A DNA stretch of 64,000 bases from Mizuhopecten yessoensis (lineage: Eukaryota), in NCBI RefSeq assembly GCF_002113885.1, contig NW_018408567.1, positions 1,434,233-1,498,232 on the forward strand, given 5' to 3'. How positions within the stretch are numbered: position 1 is the stretch's first letter; each line of letters starts with the position of its first letter. The notes beneath the pieces are model-generated. The model was given only the letters and a program-made list of their open reading frames with translations. It did no database searches and was not told the DNA's origin. This document shows, one piece after another, positions 9,831 to 49,143 of this stretch. The position numbers and the translations under genes were made by a program.

Positions 9831-12800
9831 TCAGACGGGTTTCGTGGGATCGGTGTAATCTAGATCTGGCGACTCCGACGGCTGCCTTTGGGATTCCGTA
9901 ATACCACGGTCAGACGATTCCGATGGCAGCCTTTGGGATTCCGTAATACCACGGTCAGACGATTCCGACGGCTCCCTTTCGGACTTGGAAATACCGCGGT
10001 CAGATGATTCCGATGGATGCCTTTTGGATTCCGTAATACCACGGTCAGACGATTCCGATGGATGCCTTTGGGATTCCGTAATACCACGGTCAGACGATTC
10101 CGATGGCTGCCTTTGGAATTCAGTAATACCACTGTCAGACGATTCTGACGGCTCCATTTCGGACTTGGTAATACCGCGGTCAGACGATTCCGACGGCTCC
10201 CTTTGGGACTTGGTAATACCGCAGTCAGATGATTTTGATGGCTCCCTTTCGGTGTTGGTAATACCGCGGTCAGGAGATTCCGATTGCTGCGTTTGGGTGT
10301 TGATACTACAGCCGTCAGAAGAGTACGATTGCTGTGTTTGCGATTTACCCATACAGAGGGAGAATACTCTGGTGTTCATCTGGGCATCGCTTTGACTATG
10401 TGAATACACACGGTACCTATTTTGACATAACTTGCAGTGCTTACTTATAATTCGCGTCCGTTATCATTCCAATTCCAGCACTCTCCTTTTTCAGTTGAAT
10501 ATATAGCCATGCATTCTGAAATTCGTTGACCGATATTCATTTCAGTGTCTGGCATTTCTGACAATTCCTTTTCTAAACATGAATACGCGATTTGTCTCTG
10601 ATGCGTACCACCTAGAACCAAGCAATGACGTAACGTGCATATCTTATGAGTGGTGCCAATGGTTTTGCAATTGGGATGTTTAGCTATTGCAATATCGAAG
10701 AATCTTCTTGCATTCAACTCGTCATTCATTGCTAGGTAACAATGCGCTATGGCATTAACAGCCTTGAGGTTCACTGGGTGTTCAGGTGTACACTGTTCCA
10801 GCATGTTTAATGCTTGTTGGTTGTACTCTAAAGCCAGGGAGAAGTTTCCTCTGCAAAGAACAACATGCCAGCATACACCTTTCAATTCTATAATTATGTC
10901 TTTGATCATGTTCCTTATCATCCTCGATACTCCAAGGGTTATGCTCACTTTCACTCTCTACACCCCTGGAATGTGCCATTGTAAAATTGAAGGCACGCAA
11001 CTTGCTATTTGTTGGTCGCAGGACAAAAACTGACCAATCGCTAAGGCCTATACCTGTCCTTTGAAGATTACAGAGAAGCCACCACCGGCTTCAAAGCCAG
11101 TCAATTTGACCTTTACGCGACCGACAGCTTCTTTTGATGTACAACAAATGATCAATCAAGTCTTCTTGTCTCATGCACAAGATGGGACACACTAACCATT
11201 TGATTTAGCTTTAACATATTCCAGGGATGTTGAAAGCGAAAGTGAGTGTACCCCTTGGAGTATCGAGGATGGTTGCGTAAATATCAATTAATTAATTTAG
11301 TTTGTTTTTCCTTTTTGAATAAAAAAGGAAAATAACGGGTTTGCATTGCATTATGAATTGTACTTACATATAATCATATTCTTGATACATTAAACCTTTG
11401 GTTATTTACCACCATGATGGATTTCATTATAGAAATATTTCTCACATTTGCATGTAGACTAATGCGATGTAATAGAGTGTCACTCCTGTGAAATGGTCCA
11501 CCCAGCCATACTGTTTACGGAGTTCAATGGCCTCTTCAAGGGTTTTAAGGGCAGCGTCTGAAGCAAGGAAAACCTCAATCAAATTGTTCTATAAGAGAAT
11601 AGCAACACGTATGTCAGTCATACACTTAGATAGATAAACTTATTAATTCAAATCATCGCTTGGATAAATATGTCCATTCGGAACATTAAGGGTTTTAGAT
11701 GGCAAAGGTTCTGTCTATATTGATACAATGACACAATATTGAAGTTTTGTTTTGGTACATTATTTTGTATTGAAGATTACATCTGAATTATATACAGGTA
11801 GATCTTTGATTCAATTTAAATGTCATTAATATAAATACGTTTTCAGTTATAAATTAACTTATACATATAAAGTTCTCTTACACAATGAGCCGTTAATTAA
11901 TTTTATATTGGTATGAAACACGGTCAGTATACACGTACGTTATTTTTTCGTTATATCCTACTTTATCATACAATGGCATTAATACAAGGGAGAGAAATAC
12001 CGTAGTGGGCAAAATATGATGAAGGCAGTGGCTGCAGATCTTCCAAAACACTAGTTGAAGATTGACAATAGTTTTCAAAGTTTTCAAAATAGACATGATA
12101 TACTTAGTTTAATGTTGGTCTATATTGGCAGTGGCCATATCTTTAGGACCGCAATAAGTGATATAAATCAGTAACATAAATTTTACATTAACCAACTTTC
12201 TGGCTGTTTTACTGGTTGGGTACAACGGCGCATATGGGTAATAATCTTGCATTTGGGTAACAGTTACCCTTTTGAGCAACAACAATTGTATTACTGGAAT
12301 AAGAGTGAAATAAAAACACAAGTTCTTCTAAACGCCAGGAGCAAAAAAAGAATTATTCTTTCAGCAAAATCCAATAATTTACACCATGAAGTTCATTTGT
12401 ACACAAACATTTGTCAATTCTGACGTCTAACTATTTGTGAAAATGGCAAACCATATCAGTGATTTTATTATACACTGACTTCAGTATGTATTCAATATGA
12501 TCATCCAGTGCAAATGTGACAAGTGAGTATGATTTTATCTGTGGGCTATTTATGTGGGCTTCTCAACAACACACTATAAGCAATGGAAGTGATGCAATTG
12601 TATCATNNNNNNNNNNNNNNNNNNNNNNNNNNNNNNNNNNNNNNNNNNNNNNNNNNNNNNNNNNNNNNNNNNNNNNNNNNNNNNNNNNNNNNNNNNNNNN
12701 NNNNNNNNNNNNNNNNNNNNNNNNNNNNNNNNNNNNNNNNNNNNNNNNNNNNNNNNNNNNNNNTAACATTGTAACATTGTTTCATTGTATCATTGTATTG

Positions 12801-15800: not shown

Positions 15801-18800
15801 TTTTTCCTCAACAGTTTATTGCAAAAGAATATGTTGTGGAGATTTCAAAATTTTCTATACCATGAAAATTAACCTACTCTTTCGTTGTTATAAAATCTGA
15901 AGAATATACCGATAAACAGTTTATACCTCCATGTTGAGACCCCATATATGTAAAACATGAGATTAAATTGAGCGTCAAAGTGACATAATGGCGATATTCT
16001 TTTCCATTCTGAGACTCCGTGTCTAAAAATAGTACATTCATAAAATCAGTTTACCTTTATGTTTCCCTGTTTACTCTTTATATACCAGAACAACAACAAA
16101 CACTAGCTCTAACTTCTCAAGGCTTGATATAAAATATTTTCATATACTAAAAGACAGATTTCGCACCAGCTGCACTTGATCCATTAAGTCCGAATTAAGA
16201 TCATTTAACAATGTTTCGGTCCTTCTGGCAAAAAATAATGGAATGACAATGTCAAGGAAAATACAACATTATAAAATATTTTCCCTTATTTTTCCTTTTT
16301 TATCAAGTTATAAATTGATAAAACAAGTTACAAGTGCACCTCCCGACTGGAGAAACACACGCTAAACAGTTCCTCGGCCGCCACGACTGCCTGAAATCAG
16401 ACAAGTAGTAACTAAACCGGGAAAAAAACGGAAGCATGTTATTCCTTTTATCATATAATCATATGACATTGTAATATCGTATGTATATGAATAGCCTCAT
16501 GAACCCATACACAATCGGAAGCGCTAGAAAGTCTAGTTTGTTTATTTATCTCTATTTACCGATCACAGAGACATGTTTATTTTTTTTTCCTCAACAGTTT
16601 ATTGCAAAAGAATATGTTGTGGAGATTTCAAAATTTTCTATACCATGAAAATTAACCTACTCTTTCGTTGTTATAAAATCTGAAGAATATACCGATAAAG
16701 AGTTTATACCTCCATGTTGAGACCCCATATATGTAAAACATGAGATTAAATTGAGCGTCAAAGTGACATAATGGCGATATTCTTTTCCATTCTGAGACTC
16801 CGTGTCTAAAAATAGTACATTCATAAAATCAGTTTACCTTTATGTTTCCCTGTTTACTCTTTATATACCAGAACAACAACAAACACTAGCTCTAACTTCT
16901 CAAGGCTTGATATAAAATATTTTCATATACTAAAAGACAGATTTCGCACCAGCTACACTTGATCCATTAAGTCCGAATTAAGATCATTTAACAATGTTTC
17001 GGTCCTTCTGGCAAAAAATAATGGAATGACAATGTCAAGGAAAATACAACATTATAAAATATTTTCCCTTATTTTTCCTTTTTTATCAAGTTATAAATTG
17101 ATAAAACAAGTTATTTCGCCCGTTTTTCTTCGAGAAAAACCGGCTTTTCGTACGACAAAAATATAAGATACTAATAAAAAGATTTTTTTTTTTAATTCTT
17201 TATGTTGATAAATTCGCTTATTGACATAGTTTACATCGTGCATTTGCATCAACTGTTAAATGAAATAATGAATGTACTCCTTACCGCAATGAGTAAATTA
17301 TTTCCATAAATCAATACAGCTTCTTTGTTACATGTAACTAGTGTAATTGTTGCCTTGTCAACAATGATAATTATTTCTAGTTTGCATTTCACGAACCTGC
17401 ATAAGAAGTGGAAACATTTCCTGTGTACAATGTATCGTCTGCTGCATCAACTGGCGGACATTATCGAAGTATCCATGGAGATAACTTAGCACCCCTTCCC
17501 GCCCGTGTACGTACACCCTTTGGTCAACATCATGTAGAGTCCGACAGAAGAATTTCACAAACTGCAAACGGGCCGGATATAACTCGGCTACATCATGTAC
17601 TTCTTCTGTAAGAAACTCGTGTAGAAATGCGGGTATTTCATATCTGTCAGAATTCGTACTTCTGGACACCAAAGAATGATCACACAACTCAACTAACGAT
17701 GCACAAGCACTGCCCCCAGCCTCTCCAAGTGGTGAAATTATCTCCTTTGCAGCAGATTTGGAAAAGGACCCTTGAAAAAGCGTTAATAGCACAGCCCCTT
17801 TCTTCACGCTTTCCGACATTCGGTCGAAGAAGTTTTGCAGTTTCTGTTTATGAAACGATATGATTTTCATCAGTGATCCAGGGGTCTGTAATATGATGAC
17901 AAGATCTTCAATGCCAACCACTCGTTGAGGGTGGTTCAACAACAAGGCGGCTTCCATTATTATTCCAGGCAAGTACCAACATCCACGAACAATATCATGG
18001 GCGAATGCTGTCAAATCAACGGTACATTCTTGTGCTACAATTTGAAGTAAGATGACCCCCTCTAATTCTGACAAACCTGCTAAGAATGTGGCACGCGCTG
18101 GTACTGAAGATAGATATGTTATTCTCATTTGACTTGATACTAAGAGAAAAATATTTCCTGACAATCTGAGAATCTTCTGGCAAAAGTTTATGAATCGGTT
18201 CTGCAACACTGATGTATGTACAAGACTGTCTACCTTTGTAAATACTAACAAGAACTGACATGATTGGTTGGCGTTCGCCATCAGTCTGAGGTGAGTGATA
18301 ACGCTATGTTCAGTGTCTTCATGTGTGAGTGGAGCTCCTGAACGTTCCAATCCGTCAAACACTCCCCTGACGTATTTATACACTTCAGTGGCATCTGCTT
18401 CTCTTCATATTCTGCTACAAGCTCGTTCTGGATCTACAACAAATGGTAGATATTAATGAGGATGTAAATTGGCGAGAAGAAGAAAAGGGGAAGAAGAAGA
18501 AGAAACAAACAAACTAAACAAAACAATTAGGAAGACTTATAACAAGTATAAAAGTGGACAAAAAAGGGAGGGAAAATATCTTGAACCCCATATACAAACT
18601 GCAGGAGAAAACAGGTTCATGATGACCACCATGACGTGTCAAACCCTTAGTGAAGTCTCTCTAAAGGTTTCCCATGAAAATATCATGACAAAATCGAAGG
18701 CACCCGGTAACTTATTTAATTGGTTCAGGTGAAAAAACTTTACCAATCGATAGACTGATTAGCTTTGAAGACATCCAACTTTAAAGCCAGCCAATAGCGT

Positions 18801-33662: not shown

Positions 33663-36600
33663 TTACTTCTGTTTTGCCATTTCCATTTGTTCGTGACGTT
33701 TCGTATGCTGGTTCATATGCACTATATCCCACTTCTTCATCCACGGTCCCTGAATGGTGGTGTCGAACTCGGGATCACATTCCTTGCGAAACAAATAAAT
33801 AGTCAGATATTCAGCAAGATATTCACCTAATTTGATAAAATTCAAATAAAAGAACTTAAATGAAAATGATATCGGTTAACAATACAAGTTCGCTATCGAG
33901 ATTGTGCTATAGGGATCACAGGGAAAAGACAAGAAGATTTGTTTATGTACCTGTGTACATTTTATGAGTCTATGCCTTATATACAAGCACTATATTATCT
34001 GAAATATAACCATCGATCGTGATCTCCAGCTCGAAACAGTATCAAAATATTTCGTTTCAACCATAAGCTCATACTGGAATATTTTCGATTTTCAGAATAG
34101 GTCCTAATTTCAACATTTGAGAAAGTTGATACAACCGAAACAAAACGAATAATATCGTCTTCATTTGCGTATCCGAAGTTACTAATAGAATATTCCCCTA
34201 CATTGAGGATGTGACAGAGAAATCTCCAACCCGGAGATGTGGGGATTGATTGAGGATCTACCGAACAATCACCCCAAGGGATAGAGATTGTTTCTGTAAC
34301 ATCCTCAAAAGCTTATGTTTCTCCTGTACGAGGCTATCTCCCCCTAGGGTTGACAAGCTGATCTTTCCTGGCTGAAACGGGAAACACCTTTGAAGGGTGG
34401 TAGAAATAAAACATAAATTAGTGATGTAGTACTCACAATATCCAAGTCCTTGACAGAATCCTTCTGCAGGGCGGTCCGATCCACGGCCACGAATGCGTCC
34501 CAGTCAATCTTGACATGAGGGTCAGAGGATGACCTCATCATCACGCCGTCCTTCATGTCCCAGAGGCCGTACGGCTTGTCAGGGCGCTGCCATCGCAGGT
34601 CAAGAGCCCAACGCACCTGCTTCGACAAGTTAGGCAGACTGCAAATATATTGATGATTCAGGATAAATGCAGCAAGGTACGCTAGAAATTTAACCATGCG
34701 GTTAGATAGACATCGGATATAGGCAGGCGTTTATTCTTGCTGCAGACAAAAGAAAAAAGCTTGGCAGTCTGCCGTCATCATTGTGATATCAAACGGGATT
34801 TAAATATATTTTGGTGGGATTCAAGCATAATCGTGACGTCAGATCGGATTGAAACATGATGTTAAGCAAACTTTCATCACAGTGATGAACTTAGCATTGT
34901 CCCTCTTCTTCTTTCAATAATAGCATCAGATCATTTGACCGAAAGTCACTGTGCTACGACAACATCAACCTTTCGTTTTTTATAAGCAATAACAACATGC
35001 TATGTCTACATCACAATCAGAAGACATCAAATGATATCCTAATAAGATGCACTGAACGATTTATACATACATTTTATCATTCGTCTCACCATCAGATTTG
35101 ACAGTATGTTCTTTTTTTAATATTTCGCTTAAATATTTTTTCATCTTTTAATATTTAAAAAATCAATATACAATGCCACTTCTTGCAACCTACCTTCTAT
35201 GTGGCGTAGCGTTGTTGAAAAGAAGAAATCCCCCGTATGGTATGGGGCACGTGACAAGGTCTCTGGTAATGTCAACACCTGGAAAATACAGTCACATGTC
35301 AGCTCCATTGGTCGAACACATGATCATATTCATAGTCTTTACGGGATGTATGAAGCCACCTAATGATGCCCAAACCTAACAATGTGTGATAATAGGATGA
35401 AGAAATATTGTGATATACTCAATGCATCTAGCGATTTGTGTATATAAAGAAGATATGTATTAATATATCACCTAGTGACTGGTGTAACGGATGAAGAAAT
35501 CTAGTGATGTAGATAACTAGCCTGTTGTGAGTGAGATGAAGATTTAAGGAGGTACGTACCTAGAGACTTCACCATTTCCTCCTCCTCCAACATCACGTAC
35601 CAGGTACCACCATAGCAACACTGATGCGTCGCGATTTTCCCTGCACTGTGAGCACCCTTGGCAACCTAGTGATAACCATACAATATTTACTTTTACTTCA
35701 TTTTCTTAGGTTTGAAGGTTGAAGTAACCTTTGTTATTTATGTATGGTATAACATATCAGGAAAAAATGCCTAAAGACATCTTCACGTTTATCCTAGATC
35801 CCTATCTTAGTTATGCTGATCGGTACGGTCAACCCCTTTATAGGGTAAAAATGGTATGTTTTTAAAGTATCTTTTAACGCGTATCCGCTGAACTTCATGC
35901 CGATATTTATAATGTACTTATACCAAGTATACCCACTATATGACGCATTTATATTAATGGTGTTGTTAATGGAAAATATTGATTTTGATTTTTCGTAGAC
36001 ATAAGTTAGATAGGTAGTTGTTTTTAAACAGAAGACAATCCTAATAGAACATTGGATATTGTGTTGACCCAAAATAGTACCTTATTCTTCCTCAAACACG
36101 TATTTTGAAATAGATGATAATTTTAATTTATAAGAATTGGAAAAATAGCTGAAAGCTAATACCAAACAACCCCTTTGCCTACCAAAGGTTCCATTATAAT
36201 AAATGGATAGCAAAGATAAAATAGATATGTATACGCATTATATCTTAAACGATTTTCTATTTCTGCATCTTTCAAATAAGTCAACTAGAGTAATTAAGCT
36301 TGCTCCGACTTATCTCACACACCAAGAGCAATTGGTACCTGCATGCCACCATTGAACTCGTCAGTATCCAATAGGGGTATCCAGGCCGTAGGCACCAAAA
36401 CCTTGTAGGAATCGTTATCAAAGTAGGCACTGTCTGTAACAACAAAACGCTATAGGTAGTCAATGCTCACCGTGGGCCTTGTATATAGCAGCGCAGTGTC
36501 ATAGTAAATCATAACTCAATTTTGTACTTTAGAATCTGATTAATTGCACAGTAGCTGCTAATCAATATGTCATTAAAAATATATATTTATCTTTTTTGTA

Positions 36601-39600
36601 TGTTTTACTTGAAAATAAATTTGATAATAAGTATAAATATTTAATATTACAACATATCCATTATCCAAAACAATGTAAGTGTGTTATGTTAGCATAAATG
36701 TTAATTTCTTTCAAATTACTAGAATAAGAAGACTTTGTATTTTTACTTTCGAAGATTAAGGAATCTGCCAAAATCAGCTATGTTTTGAAGTAATCCCAAC
36801 GATTTATCAATTGTCTGGTGGACATTGGATGAAGTTGTCCTTACCTTGGTGCCACGGGACGACTGTTGCCTCGTTCCGGGGTGTTTTGGTGCGGAGGTTC
36901 CAAACGGGGGATGAAGCAATATCAGGCCCTATCAACTGTTCTATGACGTTCAGCAGACGATCGTTAGACCACAGGTCACGATAGGCCTGATCAAACAGAT
37001 ATTGTCGGGGTGGTTTATGGAAATATCTTATAAGTCGTTTTGTTTCAGTATAATTGCTTTTTCGTAATGAACTATGTGATTTAGGTAGTTTATAATGATG
37101 ATTAGTTTCGTACAGCTTTTTCGGAGGAGGGTGAGGAGGATCATAAAATTAATGGGCAGCTAATCTCAGGAAACCTTTCTAATTTTGTTCAACAGTCTAA
37201 ATCATGAAATATAATCGTCAAATATAGAAAGCAAAACAGGGAGATAAACAAAACTATAAAAAATACATTTCAAAAAGAATATCTGCAATAACTTACTAAA
37301 TGTTTTAGAGTATACGATATGTAAAACATTGATTAAAATGAAGGCATTTGTCAATTCGTTATTTTTGTTTATTTATTTATTCATTTTCATTTTGTATTTA
37401 TTTTCTGATGAAGATTTAACAACGCATCGATATTTTGCTCAAAAAGTTTTAACATTAAATTTAAGTGCGATAAGAATTGCTAGCCATTTATTTATTTTGT
37501 GATAATAGAAATACAGTACAAATATACATGGTATCGAAATGGCTTTAAAATGTATATAAATAAATATGATAAAGCAATTTGATACGTTGCAAAGATGATG
37601 TTGAATTTTGGGAGTGTAGTTTAGATATATCATGCAGTAAATAATTTTAAATAAATTATGTAAAATTTTATTCATAATTCTATATAAATGATATATCATT
37701 AAATATATAACCTGGGGTAGCTCTCCTGTCTTATGGAGGATGACATTGGCTCCAGGAAATTCGGTCTCAATCTTTGTTAATCTTTCAAATAATCCATATT
37801 CCTTATACAAATCTATAAAGAGGTAATCAAATGTTTACGATAAACAATCGTTATGTAAACAAAAACATGTTAAAAAAAGCTGCCGTACTATAATAAAATA
37901 AATCTCTAGTTTTAATTAAGAATCATACTATGATACAAAATAATAGTTACAATAAATATTCGTTTGGATTGTTTACAACTTAAAACCCACATGAAGTTAA
38001 CAGAATATCAAATAATATCATGGCAATTAGTGCCCCATTGATATTCTCCTTCAAACCGTACTTATTGAATCGCATATGATATTTATTCAAACAGTTTATA
38101 TTTTGGAACTTATAGTTAAATTTGTTCTTTTGCATCAAATATATTTTAACATTCAAAGACATAAACTGACGACGAAAAAGCAAAGACAAATCAAAGCGTT
38201 GTTATTAGATAAAACCCGCGATGTCTAACTCAGTGCCATTGATAAGGCTTAAGCGTCGAATATTTTCCGAATCAGGGGATGTACTTTTGACAAAACATTA
38301 TGAATAGTCTTCAATAATAATATTTACCAATTAGGGACATACAATGGCATACCAACAGACAGAGCATTAAATATAATCACCACATAATACGTAACAATGT
38401 ATTAGTACAATGTACCTTTATTTTGTCTTATCTCAGCTATCTGTGGCCGAACTAATGGAAAGATGTAACTCAAACAGAAACAAACAAAAAAACTTTTTTG
38501 ATGGCCAAGAGGGACAGTTATTAACACCAAAGTTGATAAAAATAATAATAATCATGATAAAATATAACAAAATATATACCCCCGCTTAAATACACAAGAA
38601 CATATGATGAAGTTTAAGTCGACACAGAACGATAAAACCAAGAATCAGGACGATTCCAAATCGGTTAAAGACACCATGACTCCCACAAGAAGTACTAACT
38701 TTCCAGGAGGATGACCATGTACCATATGCGCTACCCGTGGTTTCTTACGTTTGATTTTCCCCGCCGAGTGTAGTTTCTGGGCTAGCTTTTCCACCAGGTT
38801 CTCTGTCGCCACTCGCACAGCGTCCAGCTCTGCTTTTGAAAAGAAGTCTTCCACAATCAGGTAACCCTGCATCATATACATATATTTCAAAGTTCATTCA
38901 CAGCCAATAACAGTCAGACCTTTGCAAACTTAAAAGCTGGATAACTGTTTTGCATTGGGCTTTTTCCTCATTAGTGTTATCAGTAGAAATTGCGAATCAT
39001 AGGTTGGTTTTTTTGCTTAGCTTGCAATAGGGCCACAGGTTTGATAATTTCCCATGGTATGTTATCCTGATAAAATACTAGCCGCTTCATACCGGTTCGG
39101 CTAGGGAGAATACCTCTTTGGTTCATTCGGTAGAGCGTCGTTCTAGTATGCCGGATGTACCTGGTTCGATTGACAAGGATGACAGATAACCTCTATTACA
39201 GTACCAAATATCATAAAATCGAGAGGAATGGAACAGTGTAAAGCAGAGTCGAATGATGATGGGGTAACATTGTTTTTTTTTTATCCTAAATATAATGTTA
39301 TGAGCCTTGTATTTTATATACAAACCCATAGGTATATAGGTCTCATAGGTAATAACGACAGTATGATCCAATATTGGCACTGGATCCCAACTAACAAATG
39401 TTGGTTGGATGCGTATTACTTATAACGACAGTGTAGACAAAGAAATATGTCACATTTTCAGGACGATCTGCCCCTTTATCAAGACAGGAACATGAAAATT
39501 TACATATCGCATCTTATTATATTTATTATTTTCAGTTTATTTGCCAACTTCTAATTATTTGAAAGACCGTTGGCTCACATTCTGTGCCCTATACTTGACC

Positions 39601-42600
39601 CCTCGAGGCGACTCATGTGTGAGCAATTACAGTATCGCCGGCTCAGAGCATGTACCCTAAACTTGATAGGGACTGCTTTTATCTACCTTTTTCATAATTC
39701 CTGTTAACCTGTTACAAGTACCACCCTGCAATTAAATCTTTATTAAATATTAAGTTATCTATCTTTTGATTTTCTATTATATTTCATTTTATTCAGTTAT
39801 AGGGCGAGTTTTTGTGTGGACAAATCTTTGACAAGTTGATTTTGTACACGACATTTTCGGCACTAATTGTTAGTGCGTTTCTCGGGCTTTATAATCTAAA
39901 CAAGATGTTTATTCGTATTAATAAACAGGGTACCAACATGTTGTATCCATTTTCTTTCACATTACCCCAAGGTTTTCATTTACACGAACTACTAGGACAT
40001 AAGATGTTTCTCACTACATTCACCTGACCTCAAGATGAATTATTTACTATTATTAGCCTTCGGTTCAAGCTAACCGAGGGGATATGCAATTACAACATCA
40101 TATTTGATATAAGTTACTTCTGTTTGTTTATTTATTTTGTATTGTCTAGTGGTGACTGTTTTTCTCTGTTTTATGTTGTGATATGTAAATTTTCATTTTC
40201 CTGTCTTGATAAAGGGGCAGTAGTCCAGTGGCTTACCTCCCGAAATCACAATGTTTGTGCACTTTTGGAAACAAGCATGAAATTTTGCACACATATACAT
40301 ATGACCATTACAGACTTTTTCTGCTGTAGAACCACTTCGACAGCACCACCTGGTGCCAGGTGGCGCCACCTAGCGCCACCTGGCGGCAGAGGTGGGAGTT
40401 TTTTGCTTATATATTTACATAAGTGACCATAACTTTTGATCTAGGTAACATTTTTACATTCTGTTTGCAGCATATATGTCTTGTTACATAATAGCATAAA
40501 ATGGAAACACTTCTGCAACGCCCCCTGGTGTCATGTGGCACCACATAGCGCCACCTGGTGGCAGAGGTGGGATTTTTCGCTTATACACTAACATAAATGC
40601 ACAAACATTGTGATTTTGGGACCTAAGCCACTGGACTATCTGTGCCACTTCCTAATTGAGTTCTAATTTATCTTATAATTGATGTTGCAGGTTTGTGTCT
40701 ACTATGAAGTTCGCATGAACACAAGGCGTTGGATAGAAATGGGCCAGTGAAGAAATCTATCACGGCTATATTGGACAATTTAGCGGGAACACGTGTAGTA
40801 CTTTCATTAGCCATGGCTGAGGTGGACAGCAGAGACGATACAAACGTGTCTATTAAATGGCATCTATGCATATTTTGCCAATCAAATACTTCGGAACATT
40901 TGGAATGTCCAGCAAAATCCAAAGCAAGTGATTCTGGAAAAGGTTACACAACATTGGTGGACTGTTTGAAGGAGTTTCGCAATGCTGAGGTCTTACCAAT
41001 TACCATAGACCTGGTGAATATGGATGTTGAGACATTAAAACGGCACGAAGCTTCTTGGCATAAATCCTGCAGGGTTCAGTACAACAGGACTAAGTTACAG
41101 CGGGTATTGAAGCGCAAGGTGAAGAGCAGTACGTCAGGAAATGATTACGGACTAAGTGATGTTAAAATCACTAGATCAGCAAGCAATCCATCTGCAAGTT
41201 TCAGCGTTTTTTCAGACAAATTATGCTTTTTCTGTGACAAGAGTATTTCGTCTTCAGATAGATACAAGCGTGTGGCTTCAACCTTTGCTTTGGACAGAAA
41301 AATGCGAAAATGTGCGACTGATCTTTGCGACTCTACATTGTTAACCAAATTAGCTGGTGGCGACATGGTAGCTACTGAAGCAGAATACCATGTAAACTGT
41401 TTGACGTCTCTGTACAAACAACATGCACAGTTTTTGGAACAATCACATGAGAGTAACTCCGATGGTAACATTCATGGCATTGTGTTTGCTGAACTGCTTG
41501 CATACATTGACGAGGCTAGGTGTGATGAAGAACGACCTTCGTTCAGGTTAGCTAACCTGGTCCAGTTGTACAATAACAGAATGGGGGAACTGGGTGTTAA
41601 GGACAGTGTGCATGCAACACGATTGAAGGACAAAATCTTGTCACAAATACCAGATCTCTCAGCACATACGAGTAAATGTAGTCAGGGTCAAGGTGTGATT
41701 TTCATGTTTAACTCTGATGTAGCAAATCTTGTACAGGAAGCGAATCGCCATAGAGACTATGATCTGGATGCAATCCATATTGCAAAGGCGGCTGAAATAG
41801 TGCGATTAGACATGTTCGACAATGTGTCCTTATTCAATGGGTCATTTCCACCACAGTGTCAAGAACATGTCATACCCAAGTCTTTGAAGGCATTAGTTGA
41901 CATGGTTCTTCAGGGACCGAGCATAAAGGATCAGTCCGCAAAGGAAGGCTCAGACCTACAAGCAGCCCTAACCATATCACAGATGTTCCTTTTCAATGCT
42001 GTAAAACATTCCAGGCATGCATCTACCTCTGGACAGGTCAGACATAAAGCGGATCGTGAAACACCGCTGCCTCTATATATTGGCCTAAAACTACACGCTG
42101 CAACACGCAAGAAGAGACTGGTTGACATGATGTTTCAGCTTGGCATGAGCGTGTGCTATGACCGTGTTTTGCAGGTTATCACTGATCTGGCAAATGGAAC
42201 ATGTGATAGGTTTGAAGCAGAAGGCGTCGTTTGTCCTGTCAATATGAAGCTAGGACTGTTCACAGTAGGTGCCCTTGATAACTGCGATCACAACCCAACA
42301 TCAGCTACCGCACACGATTCCTTCCACGGAACAAGCATATCACTCTTCCAGTTTCCGACAGAGGCTGTACCTGGAACTGACAGAGGTATAACCTTGCTCC
42401 ATCCTGCATCACCACACGATGACAAGCGAAAGGTTGTGCCACTCCCAGACGCCTATGTAGATGTCCCACCAGCAATACTACGCACAAAAACAATGTGTAT
42501 TCCAGTAGCAATTGTTGGTCCTGTTACGCCAGCTGAAACTTCCGTTCAAGAGGCAATGCTTGAAGAACAAGAATGGCTTGTCCAAGTGAGACGTCTAGTA

Positions 42601-45600
42601 GACAAGACCAAACTTGAAAAAGGTGAATATGTGTCAAGGGCTGCGTATCATGCTTCCCAACAGTCCCAAGAACCACATCCAGTCACCTTGGGTTCCTTGT
42701 TGCCACTCTTTTATGAGAGTGCGCACACAGTTGCCATGGTCAAGCATGGGATGGATGTGATCAGAAATGCAACACATTATGTCAATCCGGGTCAGATCGC
42801 AGTCATGGCTGTAGACCAACCCCTGTATTCCTTGGCAAAGCAGATTCAGATGTCCTGGCCAGTTACACACGGTGAAGACAAATATCTCATTATGTTTGGT
42901 GGGCTACATATTGAAATGGCTGCATTTCGAGCACTTGGTACTTGGCTGCAAGACAGCGGTTGGACATCAGCCCTAGTTCAAGCAGATGTAACAACGCCCG
43001 GCACTGCAGACTCATTTATTAAAGTAGCTCATGTCACAAAGACGAGACATGCCCATCCAGTCATAGCTGCTAGCCTTGCCATCCTCAAGCACAAGGCGTA
43101 CCAGGCGTACATCGATTCACTTCCTGAAGAAGATCCAAAAGTTGAAATTGGCGCCTGGGAGGAGCAACGGGTTGTGGCATGCCCTCACTTTCAATATTGG
43201 TGGCTAACTCTGAAACTGCAACTCATGGTATTGCTGTTCGTTAGAGCTGAACGCGATGGCAATTTTTGCCTCTACGTAGAGACCCTGAACAAGCTGACTC
43301 CGTGGTTCTTTGCACTGGATCAAACCAACTATGCCCGATGGTTACCTGTTCACATTCGAGACTTGAACACGCTTTCACAGGTTCATCCAGACTTACACAC
43401 TGAATTCCAGAATGGTAACTTTGTGATTCACAAAACTGTGGTTTCTGGTCATGAGCAGAACAATGCGATGGTGAAGGGATCTGGGGGTGCAGTAGGCCTC
43501 ACAGAAAACCCGAGTGCGTTCAGACGTTGGATGGTTGCAGGACCTGAGCTAGCAAGGATAACAATTGAATTTGAGACCGCGTTCACTGCTCAAGATGATG
43601 ACACCGGTCACCATGAGCAGACTCCAGCAGTACAAACTGCATTTGCCAAGCAGGTAATGTCTCTAGTGTCAACTATTGAAGACATGGGGAATCCCTTTCT
43701 TGAAGAGAGTGCTGATCTTCTAGTCCTGGATACAAAGGACATAGTCAGTGAGTCCGTAGTTAAGACGGTCAGGAACATAGAACAAATAGGCGTGAAAGCG
43801 TAAGATGCCTATGTAGAGCAGAGGCTAGTGAAGGCAGAAAAACCCATCTCAGACCCCATAGCGAAACAGCAATTGCCACTCTTCAGCAGACCACAGAAAA
43901 AAATCCATCTCGTTCACAGCTGCAAGTAGCTGACCTAGAAGTTGATCGCGAACTTATGTCGCAGCTGTATGTATCCTGCCAAACACGAGCAGTTAACCAA
44001 GACGACTTCTTCATGTATGAGAATCATCCCTACGCACCAAGTCTTTCAGATCATGGGAAGCTGCGTGCAAGCAACAAGTCAGATTTGATTTCATGCCTGA
44101 AAAGCCTGATTACTCCTAAGACTGATGGACCTACAGTGGACTGTATAATCTTGGATGGTGCCACAGTAGTGCATTTACTTGCTCCAAGAACAGCGGCAAC
44201 CTTCAACGAATATGCCTCTGCCATATTTTTGCCATACATTGACAGACAGTTACAGAATGCACAACGCGTGGATGTGGTTTGGGATGCATACATACCGGAC
44301 AGTCTGAAGGAATCAACAAGGAAGAAGAGAGGAACAGGGATCAGACGGAGAGTTTTGGGAACATCTAAAATTCCGACGAACTGGATGAAGTTTCTCTGTG
44401 TGGCAGAAAACAAAGTAGAGCTGTTTGACTTTTTGACACACGCTGTTATAAACAGACAATAAACAGAACACGAGGTGTATGCCACTGATGGAGTAGACGT
44501 ACTCTGCTCCCAACCAAATGCAGACTGTGCCTACATTAGTCCATGCAATCATAAGGAGGCGGACACGAGAGTCATTCTTCATGCCAGTGATGCTGCAAAC
44601 AAAGGCAGTAAAAAGTGCCTTATCAGGACCGTAGACACTGACATCCTCGTTCTAGCGATTGCATATGTAGAGCGAATTGGTGTCGAAGAGTTATGGGTGG
44701 CCTTTGGCACAGGCAAGGGATTTTGTTATCTACCAGCCCATGAAATTGCGTGTGCACTAGGCTCACCGAAAGCTGCATCGTTGCCGATGTTTCACGCATT
44801 CACGGGATGTGATACGGTGTCCGCATTCGCTGGGAAAGGAAAGAAAACCATGTGGGCCGTTTGGCGTGTGTACCCAGAGAAAACAGAAGCATTTGTAGAC
44901 TTGTGCAGCGGCACTGATGTCATTAGTACAGAAGCTACTTCTCTGATAGAGAGATTTGTCATTCTTGTCTACGACCGAACCAGCCAACTCAAAGACGTCA
45001 ATGAAGTTAGGAAAGATCTCTTCACAAGAAAAGGCAGATTCAAGTACGACAGTCTACCTCCAACGAAAGCAGCTCTCACTGAGCATGCCAAAAGAGCTAC
45101 TTATCAAGGTGGCCATGTGTGGGGGCAATCGATCAGATCACAAATAAAACTACCAGATCCGGCAGCGTGGGGTTGGACGAAAACAAACGATGGATGGGAG
45201 CCATATTGGACCCCGCTACCAGAAGCATCAAAGGGATGTCGCGAGCTCATCAAATGTGGCTGCAAGAAAGTGTGCACCACAGGCCGTTGTGGATGTTTCC
45301 GTGCTAAGTTGTCATGTACTACGCTGTGTTCATGCATGTGCATGGATTATGCATAGACAATTGACATAATTAAGGGAGATAAATGATTGCTTGTGACCGA
45401 ACAAAAAGCAATTGACATACCAAGGCAAACACATCTGGTATGCTTTGGAGGCAATGTTGTGGATATTTTCGTTATAAGATGACATTACCATGTCGTATTC
45501 TAATTAACATTTGCATTCTCCATAGACAATTAGTGGCATTATTAAGAACACTTGATCCCAATATAGGGGACTTAAATTGTCGCTTGTGACTGAAACAGTG

Positions 45601-47107
45601 AAATTTATATATATCAAGACAATTAAGCATGACTATGTATTGGAGGTAACTCACTTGCATATATGTAAGATGAGTCAACTATGCCACTAGATGGTGATAC
45701 CTGCCATTAATGCTTCTACTAGAATAATATATAATTAGTAGCAGTGAGCACATGCAACAAATAACATAGTTGTTTGCACAAATGCACATATATTATCGTC
45801 TGAAAACTGAATACACATATTCCAACTACGGTAGATCGAACTTTATTATTAAGCACTTCTGCCACTTCTGCACCACTTAGATACCATGTGACCCTGCACA
45901 AGTGTTTCTATGTTATGCTATGATGTAACAAGACATATATGCTGCAAACAGAATGTAAAAATGTTACCTATATCAAAAGGTATGGTCATTTGTGTAAATA
46001 TATAAGCAAAATATCCCACCTCTGCCGCCAGGTATAGCATAAAATGGAAACTCTTTTGCAGCGCCCCCTGGTGTCAAGTGGCACCACATAGCGCCCCCTG
46101 GCGGCAGAGGTCGCAGTTTTTTGCTTATCTATTTACATAAATGACCATACCTTTTGATATAGGTAACATTTTTACATTCTGATTGCAGCATATATGTCTT
46201 GTTACATAATAGCATAAACTGGAAACACTTCTGCAGCGCCCCCTGGCGTCATGTGGCACCACATAGAGCTACCTGGCGGCAGAGGCGGCAGTTTTTTGCT
46301 TATATATTTACATAAATCTCATATGCTATATAAGATATCTTATATAGCATATGAGATTTATGTAAATATATAAGCAAAAAACTGCCACCTCTGCCGCCAG
46401 GTGCCGCTAGGTGGCGCCACCTGGCACCAGGTGGCGCTGTCGAAGTGGTTCTACAGCAGAAAAAGTCTGTAATGGTCATATGTATATGTGTGCAAAATTT
46501 CATGCTTGTTTCCAAAAGTGCACAAACATTTTGCTAAGCCACTGGACTAACAGATCGCCTTGACAATTTGACAAATGTGTTTGTCTGCACTGTCGTTATT
46601 ACTTCTTTGTCCACAAACCCATATATATATATATATAATACAGATTAACACTGAATCGTTGAAATTGTTTACAATATTTGTTTACTGGCATCCAAAATGA
46701 CACATAGGTTGTCAGTCAACAATATCTATTGTTGTTGTTCGAACTTCAAAATTTAGTTTTCTTTTTCGTTTGATTTCACATCTTCTTCGTCTGGTTTGCG
46801 GTAGCGCACTACAACCATGCGCCTTTGGGCTTCCGTACACAAGGGAGGACAAACCTTAGTTCTCATAAAGAAACGACCTGCCCTCACGATGAGTGATATC
46901 ACGGAATAAGACTAGCTAAGTCCGTGGTGCTATGAAACAAATATCGGTATCCGAACTTATGCTCACCTCTTCGAAGAACTGTTTGATTTTGCTGTCAGAA
47001 AGCTGACCTGATTTCTTTTCTTTCGGTTGTGGTGGCATTGCCCGTATGTCGAATACTTCGGGGTGTACCTCGTCCACGATTCCGCTGTGAATAGTGGCGT
47101 CCGCCAT
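33663..47107 (-). CDS. Phytanoyl-CoA dioxygenase (PhyH) family Fe(II)/2OG oxygenase, PHYHD1-like, 369 aa, 9 coding exons
   Basis: Exons 47107-46967, 38866-38749, 37812-37712, 36986-36845, 36433-36339, 35665-35560, 35278-35194, 34638-34437 and 33782-33663 total 1110 nt, in phase, with GT-AG introns. Motifs FFEEGYLIVEDFFS, PWHQD (HxD), AWIPL...NGGMQV..G.H, PHRS (distal His) and RWALDLR (2OG Arg). Confidence 0.92.
39111..39180 (+). mobile_element. tRNA-derived SINE head or tRNA pseudogene
   Basis: A-box-like ggttcattcggtagagc and B-box ggttcgatt; poor acceptor stem. Confidence 0.45.
40221..46549 (+). mobile_element. Academ (AcademX) DNA transposon, ~6.3 kb, in intron 1 of the PhyH-like gene
   Basis: Termini TAGTCCAGTGGCTTA / TAAGCCACTGGACTA; ~200-bp TIRs; flanks gcag / acag (4-bp TSD with one mismatch). 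TAG...CTA ends, 3-4 bp TSD and the transposase-XPG-Cys8 protein are the defining Academ features. Confidence 0.88.
40813..45356 (+). pseudogene. AcademX transposase + XPG/FEN-like nuclease + Cys8 zinc finger, disrupted
   Basis: Motifs GALDNCD, AVDQPLY, FGGLHIE, NYARWL, HEQNN, HKEADTR..LH, VDTDI, GCDTVSAFAGKGK (H3TH), CGCKKVCTTGRCGCFRAKLSCTTLCSC. Stops at 43801 and 44460; frameshift near 43900. Confidence 0.88.
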
Positions 47108-47959: not shown

Positions 47960-49143
47960 TATGGCAAGCCAACTTAACATTTATTCAAGGAGCAATGTCG
48001 ATCCTGTATTTCGAAAGAAAATATAAGATATCTTATATAGCATATGAGATATCTTATATACTATATAAGATATCTTATATCGTATATAAGATATCTCATA
48101 TAGTATATGAGATATCTTATATAATATATAAGATATCTTATATACTATATGAGATATCGTATATAGAAATTAAATGAGATGCTATATAAGATATCTTATA
48201 TGATATATAAGATATCTTATATCGTATATAAGATATCTCATTTAATTTTCTATATAAGATATCTTATATAATATATAAGATATCTCATATAGCTATATAA
48301 GATATCTTATATAATTAAAGTCTCGTTACTAAATAAGATATCTTATATAGGAACGAGATTTTAACAAAATGTCGAAAATGAAGTCTCCCCGTCCGGAATA
48401 TCTCGAGGATCTACGTAGGGACAGTAGGCTTGTTGTAACAACACGTGTTCCTGTCGCCGCCATTATGTCTGAGCCCACTTCAAGAGTGCGGGAAATGGCA
48501 GCCTCTGCTTTGGCCGCTATAAGAGAGACAAGGCGAGCTAGGCCTAGGGAAAATACAGCATCCGTACCATCCCTCTCCGCCATTGCGCCCAATGCAATCC
48601 TGAATGTGCTCCGAATGATTCTCGAGGGAGAAATTAGTTTCTGGTTTTTAATGCCACGAAATCTCATTCTATATCAGACATCTCAATATTTCTATATGAG
48701 ATATCTCATGAGATATCTTATATACTTATATAAGATATCTCATTTAATTTCTATATGAGATATCTCATGAGATATCTTACATACTATATGAGATATCTTA
48801 TATAATATATAAGATATCTTATATAGCTATATGAGATGTCTCATATAGAAATTAAATGAGATATCTTATATAAGTATATAAGATATCTCATGAGATATCT
48901 CATATAGAAATTAAATGAGATATCTTATATGCGATATAAGATATCTTATATAGTATATATGATATCTTATATACTTATATAAGATATCTTATATAGCTAT
49001 ATGAGATATCTCATATAGCTATATAAGATATCTTATATAATTGAAATCTCGTTGCTATATAAGATATCTGATACAGAATGAGATTTCGTGGCATGAAAAA
49101 CCAGAAACTAATTTCTCCCTCGAGAATCATTTGGCTTGCCATA
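47960..49143. mobile_element. Non-autonomous TIR element with AT-rich palindromic tandem arrays
   Basis: TIR tatggcaagccaa / ttggcttgccata; (tataagatatctta)n arrays at 48020-48350 and 48690-49070; 48613-48680 inverted against 49060-49131. Confidence 0.75.

Follow-up and report, generated by a model that had tools for sequence, protein, structure and literature searches.

An AcademX-type transposon in a host intron

The window, by which we mean the whole 64,000-nucleotide stretch of Mizuhopecten yessoensis DNA that was analysed (contig NW_018408567.1), contains a DNA transposon that lies antisense within intron 1 of a PhyH-domain gene, its right tip about 420 bp into the intron. The host gene looks intact. 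The element and the genes concerned are arranged as follows.

38750-38878, minus strand: second coding exon of the host gene
40221-46549, plus strand: AcademX-type DNA transposon, 6,329 bp, with ends TAG...CTA
40813-45356, plus strand: broken transposase gene
46967-47107, minus strand: first coding exon of the host gene, PhyH/phytanoyl-CoA dioxygenase-like

Terminal inverted repeats (TIRs) beginning with TAG are a feature of AcademX, a group reportedly defined by Kojima in 2020, and the TIRs of the window element begin in this way. A target-site duplication (TSD) of 3 or 4 bp, a further mark of the group, is present as 3 bp in the full copy C2300, and the window copy has no clean 3-bp TSD, its 4-bp flanks being mismatched at one base. 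The XPG-like nuclease found in AcademX instead of a helicase has its counterpart in the predicted C-terminal fold of the element's protein, since the model of the last 459 aa (pLDDT 90) resembles the folds of XRN, EXO1, XPG and FEN1 (best E 1.2e-5). The ends, the TSD of C2300 and the predicted fold thus bear out the assignment to AcademX made in the preliminary description. AcademX is described as a lineage of the Academ superfamily (PMC10045372) that is abundant in bivalves (PMC10294476), and the element resembles it in the TAG...CTA ends, the 3-bp TSD (in C2300 and most sister families), the long TIRs and the single long ORF ending in a predicted 5'-nuclease fold; unlike AcademX as described in these sources, it has CTCF-like arrays in its TIRs.

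Where uninterrupted (copy L077), the transposase gene encodes about 1,520 aa, with a Cys/His-rich N-terminus, a predicted C-terminal nuclease of the XPG/FEN1/XRN fold and a Cys-rich tail. In the window copy 24 bases have been lost near 43439-43447, followed by a stop at 43801, a frameshift near 43897 and another stop at 44460. The frames of the central gene region are interrupted or truncated in 3/3 genomic copies having that region. Pfam and PDB sequence searches of the protein gave no convincing transposase match; as regards a DDD/E core of Academ type, there is a weak match to DUF6589 (E 0.0065), and the Cys/His-rich regions give weak PHD-like and CXC-like Pfam hints, all below the cut-off.

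CTCF-like clusters in the terminal inverted repeats

The TIRs of the window copy are built from the following parts.

40221-40325, plus strand: left outer TIR scaffold, with a tip box, an AT-rich box about 53 bp in and a third box about 100 bp in
40342-40390, minus strand: left CTCF-like cluster 1, four overlapping units of 10-bp period, the strongest of 22.9 bits, facing the tip
40517-40565, minus strand: CTCF-like cluster 2 of the left end, located 175 bp farther in than cluster 1
40592-40638, minus strand: inverted internal repeat of the outermost 47 bp
45880-46033, plus strand: inner part of the right TIR, oriented as in the other copies
46034-46317, minus strand: right TIR segment, inverted in the window copy only (as assembled), holding the strong sites 46060, 46090 and 46235
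46316-46357, no strand: 21-bp host satellite, two units, in the middle of the fold-back 46222-46451
46383-46438, plus strand: right outer CTCF-like cluster, the strongest site of 22.6 bits, facing the tip
46445-46549, minus strand: right outer TIR scaffold and tip, with 98% identity over 176 nt between the TIRs

Because of the inverted 47-bp copy, the left end is a closed, MITE-like unit of 418 bp. The right end has 1 to 3 units, the count varying among copies. An array of a similar 21-bp satellite unit is located outside the element at 48021-49084.

The preliminary description reported about 12 CTCF-like matches clustered at both ends and nothing comparable elsewhere in the window. Both points are confirmed by a scan with a zebrafish CTCF matrix from the literature (PMC7182764, Data S1; first 16 of 20 columns, 36% GC background), which may not fit the scallop in that it prefers G at column 5, where the element sites have C, and which gave 12 matches at p<=1e-6 (40352+, 40372-, 40517-, 40547-, 46060-, 46090-, 46100+, 46235-, 46393+, 46403+, 46413- and 46423+). 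All of them are inside 1,120 bp of the ends; the remaining 62.9 kb of the window, the element interior included, has no match. Six sites reach p<=1e-7. The count therefore stands, but not the independence of the matches, which are copies of one unit of about 175 bp; likewise, most of the positions first listed hold, except those at about 45684, which falls short of p<=1e-4, and at 46266, which is decayed (10.4 bits). The consensus of the preliminary description, CCASYAGRKGGCRS, has a single exact match in the window (40548-40561, minus strand), and the seven matches with at most one mismatch are all (7/7) inside the element. The best score was reached in 0/1000 dinucleotide shuffles of the left end and in 2/1000 shuffles of the 65-bp GC-rich core alone; since even the core shuffles reach it so seldom, GC content is not the explanation, and GC-richness was ruled out as the cause of the matches.

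Each cluster consists of overlapping units with a 10-bp period, which have been copied with the 175-bp unit and between the TIRs, and because all the sites go back to a single short unit, they amount to roughly one independent origin. In left cluster 2 the two outer sites, separated by 30 bp, are retained (17.9 and 23.4 bits in the window copy), and the two middle units are decayed. The upstream M2 module, which is optional in known sites, is absent at the four sites concerned (best 1.2 bits at gaps of 4-14). On the side of the host, a CTCF gene is present (L024), with human CTCF as the best PDB match (E 2e-95), and the recognition helices are identical to the human ones in fingers 3 and 5 and similar in fingers 4, 6 and 7. 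Exact matches to the consensus are enriched 15-fold in the scallop genome (679 vs 45 for the reversed control), which likewise speaks for the CTCF reading of the sites. A core match to a published matrix and a host CTCF with conserved fingers 3-7, as expected where CTCF has sites, are thus both found here, and the conservation of CTCF that had been taken as established for bilaterians holds for this host.

The orientation of the sites bears on the earlier proposal that CTCF and cohesin join the element ends through loop extrusion, which we now consider highly improbable. Loop extrusion needs convergent CTCF sites (PMC10658181), whereas outward, and hence divergent, orientation is seen in 16/17 strong sites of the four non-inverted forms, so that pairing of the ends was rejected on site orientation. 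One inward unit in each outer cluster (17.3 bits in the window copy, 22.8 in L077) could provide a weak convergent pair, but the sites 46060, 46090 and 46235 face inward in the window copy only because the segment 46034-46317 is inverted, and CTCF-dependent extrusion is so far reported for vertebrates only (PMC12221973).

The copy number bears in the same way on the proposal that the family acts as a genome-wide seeder of CTCF boundaries. Other DNA transposons are known to act in this way in zebrafish and lamprey. However, DNA, pattern and protein searches of the 988 Mb found only four family loci, a lower bound, and a solo MITE of the 418-bp left end was not found in genome searches; the family's 18-base site word has 9/9 of its exact genomic matches within the four copy loci, only about 2/679 exact consensus matches were placed in the family, and a different repeat supplies 16/20 sampled matches of one consensus word. 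With so few copies and no solo MITE, seeding is largely refuted for this genome, of whose boundaries the family is not a genome-wide source, and we regard it as extremely improbable here, although the case could be different in a host where copies are numerous.

Further evidence comes from the divergence between the duplicated clusters. Cluster 1 and cluster 2 differ by six substitutions, at least two of which are CpG-type transitions; both middle units were destroyed, and the two non-overlapping outer sites changed only at the low-information columns 2, 4 and 10, their scores rising. When the substitutions were placed at random in 20,000 trials, a test designed after the sequences had been seen, both outer sites scored at least 22.5 bits in 0.5% and at least 20 bits in 2.4%. 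This supports the view that the divergence spared the outer sites in a CTCF-compatible manner, as far as the sequences tell. It also bears on the idea that the repeats are recognised by a different host protein, such as an E-box binder of the Snail/ZEB/E2A type. CAGGTG is an E-box consensus, and it is present in several units; nevertheless, the T-to-G change at column 10, present in 46060, 46090 and 46235, which are among the strongest sites of the right end, ruins the E-box and raises the CTCF score, and the CTCF match spans 14-16 columns, which makes such a reader very unlikely.

The same slot in related Academ families

For comparison, 22 Academ families with both ends defined were drawn from 101 candidate loci, one representative each, leaving out further copies and decayed or cut-off loci. 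Over 500 bp from each tip, none of these other families (0/22) has a CTCF match at p<=1e-6. The preliminary description had held that the same motif in Academ ends from hosts without CTCF would speak against its proposal; among the families from other hosts, which address this point only in part, 0/8 have such a match. Instead, a YY1-like word is found in the first 500 bp of 13/22 families (shuffled mean 0.5, maximum 4) and, more narrowly, in the slot 105-175 bp from the tip in 11/22, with 36/40 words facing inward and the first of them 125-158 bp from the tip in 19/23 ends. The slots of some related families hold ETS-, CRE- or NRF1-like words, and counting all four kinds the slot is occupied in 13/22 families, compared with 0-2/22 in four windows of equal size elsewhere, the ETS, CRE, NRF1 and nuclear-receptor words being consensuses that were picked after the ends had been viewed. 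Since 9/22 families have none of the four, a slot word is not obligatory.

Cluster 1 occupies the very slot in which sister families have YY1-like words, a correspondence that the preliminary description does not mention. Bases 16-105 align with those of 11 clade relatives (z 2.9-9.8), with no such alignment over the slot (z -1.4 to 2.6); judged by this alignment, the outer TIR scaffold is homologous across the clade and the slot is not, and the scaffold is likely the part read by the transposase. The sister family P0060 is 65-70% identical to the window family, and its locus was not found in viral or prokaryotic collections. Family B (L030/L031) has an intact frame of 1,529 aa and the same outer scaffold as the window family. 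Members of the clade from cnidarians are known as proteins, under the names Oculina and Actinostola. In the FastTree tree the YY1-slot families W1, W3, W5, W6 and W7 form one clade, so that about eight YY1-slot lineages can be counted, and the YY1-slot state shows no significant clustering on the tree (194/500 shuffles as low). Homologs of class C GPCRs flank the W-family elements. The YY1-like word itself is not specific to Academ: it has 643 copies in the genome, 26 of the first 30 are unlike the Academ ends examined, and several are in other repeat clusters.

These data are relevant to the alternative, raised at the outset, that the clusters are secondary transposase-binding repeats with an accidental likeness to CTCF sites, in this case derived by drift from an older YY1-like repeat that has the RTGGC core in common with them. 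Transposase sites are typically short, overlapping, palindromic subterminal repeats of variable copy number. The right end, where the number of units varies from 1 to 3, would fit such repeats, the out-then-in layout of cluster 1 is like that of the YY1-like words of family B, and the Cys/His-rich regions of the transposase, with their sub-threshold Pfam hints, could bind DNA. Nevertheless, the slot words of related families are unrelated to each other although their outer scaffold has been conserved, lineages with only about 25% protein identity have YY1-like words that are missing from closer ones, the variation between the clusters tracks what CTCF tolerates, and randomly mutated YY1 slots reached 22.5 bits in at most 3/3,600 trials. 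The alternative is thus weakened, and we consider it unlikely.

A proposed host-factor slot and its possible role

The reading that we favour, to which we give about an even chance, is that the TIRs contain a slot for a host factor, which has probably been switched to CTCF in this family and which would keep the ends accessible. The TIRs of this low-copy element carry CTCF-like sites about 110-160 bp from the tips and again about 175 bp further in, that is, where related families carry YY1-, ETS-, CRE- or NRF1-like words. Host CTCF likely binds these sites, and the bound protein would keep the ends unmethylated and the nucleosomes phased, whereby the transposase and the element promoter would retain access; an element that apparently passes from one host to another would be well served by a factor that is conserved throughout bilaterians. 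A protective role of CTCF on transposons has been proposed (PMC3368268). There is no sign of methylation protection here, because the observed/expected CpG ratio of the left end (0.40, on short sequence) is under that of the coding region (0.59).

CTCF may also bind in the service of insulation, shielding the element from silencing or sparing host genes, in the manner of the Su(Hw) array of gypsy. The outward orientation is the boundary layout by the vertebrate rule, the copy and the first coding exon are separated by about 420 bp, and the gypsy insulator carries 12 clustered Su(Hw) sites (PMC2374998). However, any TIR yields outward symmetry, there is little evidence for CTCF-based domains in spiralians, and the same slot holds promoter-type words in sister families, which points to open chromatin over enhancer blocking. 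Insulation as the selected function therefore seems quite unlikely.

The literature covered, which did not extend to most subscription papers and Repbase, contained no paper combining CTCF, Academ and transposable elements, and the closest systems match the element in part. The CTCF-bound DNA transposons of zebrafish (TDR13B, HATN11 and DNA25TWA1; PMC7182764, Table S3) and lamprey (hAT-Tip100 #274; PMC5504073) are likewise cut-and-paste elements with canonical CTCF motifs, but they are high-copy and supported by ChIP, whereas the scallop element is low-copy, has CTCF sites predicted from sequence, and differs in its mollusc host and in arrays whose spacing from either tip is fixed. For mammalian B2/SINE elements a survival benefit of CTCF against methylation and repressive chromatin has likewise been proposed, although these are retroelements with single sites spread genome-wide (PMC3368268). 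Drosophila gypsy is likewise a mobile element in which a dozen or so sites for an architectural zinc-finger protein of the host are grouped together in AT-rich DNA; unlike the scallop element it is an LTR retroelement with one internal array for Su(Hw), of which insulator activity has been shown (PMC2374998). A class II element with an architectural-factor word, parallel to the sister Academ families, is the YY1-motif DNA transposon of Poecilia picta, which differs in being piggyBac-like, and for which a fixed TIR position and word exchange are not discussed in the available part of the source (PMC10760456).

More tentatively, and with considerable doubt, we propose that Academ TIRs may be modular in general, consisting of an outer transposase scaffold and an interchangeable host-factor cassette placed one nucleosome length from the tip and repeated at 140-185 bp, in which YY1, ETS, CRE, NRF1, nuclear-receptor or CTCF words would be exchanged and the bound factor would phase nucleosomes and so license cutting. 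If this were true, an element that moves horizontally would have become bound to bilaterian hosts through its change to CTCF in the window family. The finding bears on the open questions of how a cut-and-paste transposase gains access to ends that are packed in chromatin and how a single element can function in distant hosts, for which the window family (uninterrupted in L077) and family B offer intact frames and a common scaffold with different slot words. Moreover, if CTCF binds, the 418-bp left end would be a compact probe for CTCF function in molluscs, where the evidence is thin.

The transposon, its transposase and the host gene

Three features of the window are referred to below:

40221-46549, AcademX-type transposon (the element), tips TAG...CTA, TIRs 98% complementary over 176 nt
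40813-45356, transposase gene, with two stops, one frameshift and a small deletion that the uninterrupted form in L077 lacks
33666-47107, minus strand, PhyH-domain dioxygenase gene, nine coding segments mapped

The element is inserted, in antisense orientation, in the first coding intron of the PhyH-domain gene. The C-terminal 459 residues of the transposase have a confident predicted fold (pLDDT 90) that matches XRN/EXO1/XPG/FEN1 nucleases, which, together with a 3-bp TSD at the copy on contig C2300, fits AcademX as described in PMC10045372. The 988 Mb genome holds at least four copies of the family, ~98% identical, and all nine exact genomic matches to its 18-base site word lie within these four. 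The exons of the PhyH-domain gene show up to 100% identity to a protein listed under the scallop Mizuhopecten yessoensis and only 40-77% to the Mya homolog. The transposase shares 96-98% identity with Mya arenaria entries (P0113 and P0050), and a word search recovered ~0.78 of the element's words under four organism labels; these two similarities suggest horizontal transfer, which we consider probable.

In every form seen, an inverted internal copy of its first 47 bp closes the left end (40221-40638), which thus looks like a complete 418-bp MITE; no solo copy of it was found in the genome. In the window copy, the right end (46034-46451) is locally inverted and has a perfect fold-back centred on two 21-bp host satellite units, an arrangement that is either a real rearrangement or a misassembly. 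Elsewhere in the window there are an open frame of tandem repeats with SDRGITESQRQPSES-like units (9831-10460) and, on the minus strand, a 348-aa frame (17358-18404) that resembles part of an NB-ARC/TPR-type gene.

CTCF-like clusters and their candidate reader

The preliminary description reported CTCF-core matches concentrated at both ends of the element, and this observation is confirmed. In the window, its consensus matches once exactly and seven times when one mismatch is allowed, and every match lies within the element. An independent scan of this scallop sequence with a zebrafish CTCF matrix (Data S1 of PMC7182764) gave 12 matches at p<=1e-6, every one in the 1,120 bp of element ends and none in the remaining 62.9 kb of the window; the 12 are not independent, because each cluster consists of four overlapping units with period 10 and the cluster was itself duplicated, both as part of a ~175-bp unit and from one TIR to the other. 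Among the individual sites named earlier, that at 45684 falls short of the threshold and that at 46266 is decayed. The best CTCF score was attained by 0 of 1000 left-end shuffles and by 2 of 1000 shuffles of the GC-rich core alone. A CTCF-like word also occurs in most units of a 36-bp tandem array on another contig (L189:2630-2970, C1345), and a similar GC-rich tandem repeat is present at L188 (C602).

The genome encodes a CTCF gene (L024), whose best PDB match is human CTCF (E 2e-95), with identical recognition helices in fingers 3 and 5; the CTCF consensus occurs 679 times genome-wide versus 45 for the reversed control. The two left-end clusters (cluster 1, 40342-40390; cluster 2, 40517-40565), compared by homology in L077, are six substitutions apart. 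In the two outer sites, which do not overlap and lie 30 bp apart, the changes fall only at the low-information columns 2, 4 and 10 and the score rises, and both middle units have lost high-information bases; random placement of substitutions gives the outer-site-sparing pattern in 0.5-2.4% of 20,000 trials. This lends modest support to a CTCF reading, since the test was conceived after the sequence had been viewed, CpG decay could account for some of the substitutions, and the upstream M2 module is absent at the element's CTCF-like sites. A Snail/ZEB-type factor might read the repeats through the E-box CAGGTG, but the column-10 change destroys this E-box, which argues against such a reader.

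It was further proposed that CTCF/cohesin brings the ends together. Such loop pairing is disfavoured: 16 of the 17 sites at p<=1e-7 in L077 and the further copies on C2300, C5266 and C4985 face outward, and the inward right-end sites of the window copy stem from a local inversion of 46034-46317. Loop extrusion depends on sites in convergent orientation, and for spiralians it has yet to be established (PMC10658181 and PMC12221973). The seeding of boundaries across the genome is rejected on the low copy number, and far more consensus words come from another repeat: a different, unclassified family (L168-L187) accounts for 16 of 20 sampled matches of one exact CTCF consensus word with 69 genomic occurrences, a share far above that of the Academ family. 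The earlier interpretation is partly supported, with CTCF plausible as reader and both looping and seeding set aside. The gypsy insulator comprises an array of 12 sites (PMC2374998), and true insulation by the present clusters seems to us quite improbable.

The slot in other Academ families

Candidate Academ loci were fetched from the studied genome (60) and from metagenome contigs (41), and one representative was compared for each of 22 other families in which both ends could be defined; 14 of these come from the studied genome and 8 from other hosts. In the 500 bp next to either tip, none of the 22 has a CTCF match at p<=1e-6. A YY1-like word, patterned on variants quoted in PMC10760456, lies within 500 bp of a tip in 13 of the 22 families (shuffled mean 0.5). 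These words mostly face inward (36/40), the first lies 125-158 bp from the tip in 19 of 23 ends, and second words follow 132-183 bp beyond, resembling the 175-bp spacing of the element's clusters. When YY1 slots were mutated at random, no more than 3 of 3,600 trials attained 22.5 bits. In the slot, the stretch 105-175 bp from the tip, YY1-like words occur in 11 families, ETS-like in 4, CRE in 2 and NRF1-like in 1; 13 of the 22 families have at least one of them versus 0-2 in four other windows, and 9 have none, where the ETS, CRE and NRF1 consensuses are those we assumed and were picked after the ends had been viewed. On a FastTree tree, five of the YY1-slot families group in a single clade, which brings the effective count to ~8 lineages; clustering of the YY1-slot label is not significant, and the CTCF-array family sits among lineages with a YY1 slot and lineages without a word. 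Within the CTCF-array family, bases 16-105 can be aligned with 11 clade relatives (z 2.9-9.8), and the slot aligns with none of them. The alternative that the clusters are transposase repeats appears unlikely.

The YY1-like word also occurs outside Academ: it has 643 genomic copies, and 26 of the first 30 were unmatched to the Academ ends used here. It is found in at least three non-Academ repeat clusters (L119, L120, L132, L138, L142, L143; L125-L140 group), where it often precedes a CCAAT-like word and recurs every 120-270 bp. Several promoter-type words are stacked in the slots of families O and N (L167 and L063 ends; NRF1-like, CRE-like and YY1-like, and ETS, CRE and YY1-like), and nuclear-receptor half-site pairs occur in those of W2, J and Lf. 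Family B (L030/L031; contigs C1613 and C5578 of the studied genome, G000) has frames of 1,529 aa without interruption, TIRs of ~700 bp and 3-bp TSDs, and entries from a sea spider and a priapulid fall into its 90% protein cluster; this suggests recent activity and wide transfer. At L161:5179-9219, an Academ copy hosts a second, nested element that has TAG ends and long TIRs.

Proposed working of the ends

In each end, the outer ~105 bp are conserved, and a variable slot comes next, at a distance from the tip of about one nucleosome length. The outer part is probably read by the transposase, and the slot holds host-factor-like words, in this AcademX family CTCF-like arrays. We give even chances to a reading in which CTCF binds the candidate sites and thereby keeps the ends, and the promoter close to them, accessible. 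The CpG depletion of the left end (observed/expected ratio 0.40) gives no sign of protection. The accessibility reading agrees with the survival role of CTCF for transposons proposed in PMC3368268.

CTCF-bound DNA transposons are described in zebrafish (PMC7182764 including Table S3, and PMC9341505) and lamprey (PMC5504073). In the open-access literature, we found nothing joining CTCF with Academ or subterminal host-factor sites with YY1, and no report of a fixed host-factor slot in TIRs. Judged from its sequence, the element is a CTCF-array version of the proposed host-factor slot in Academ ends, with binding predicted.
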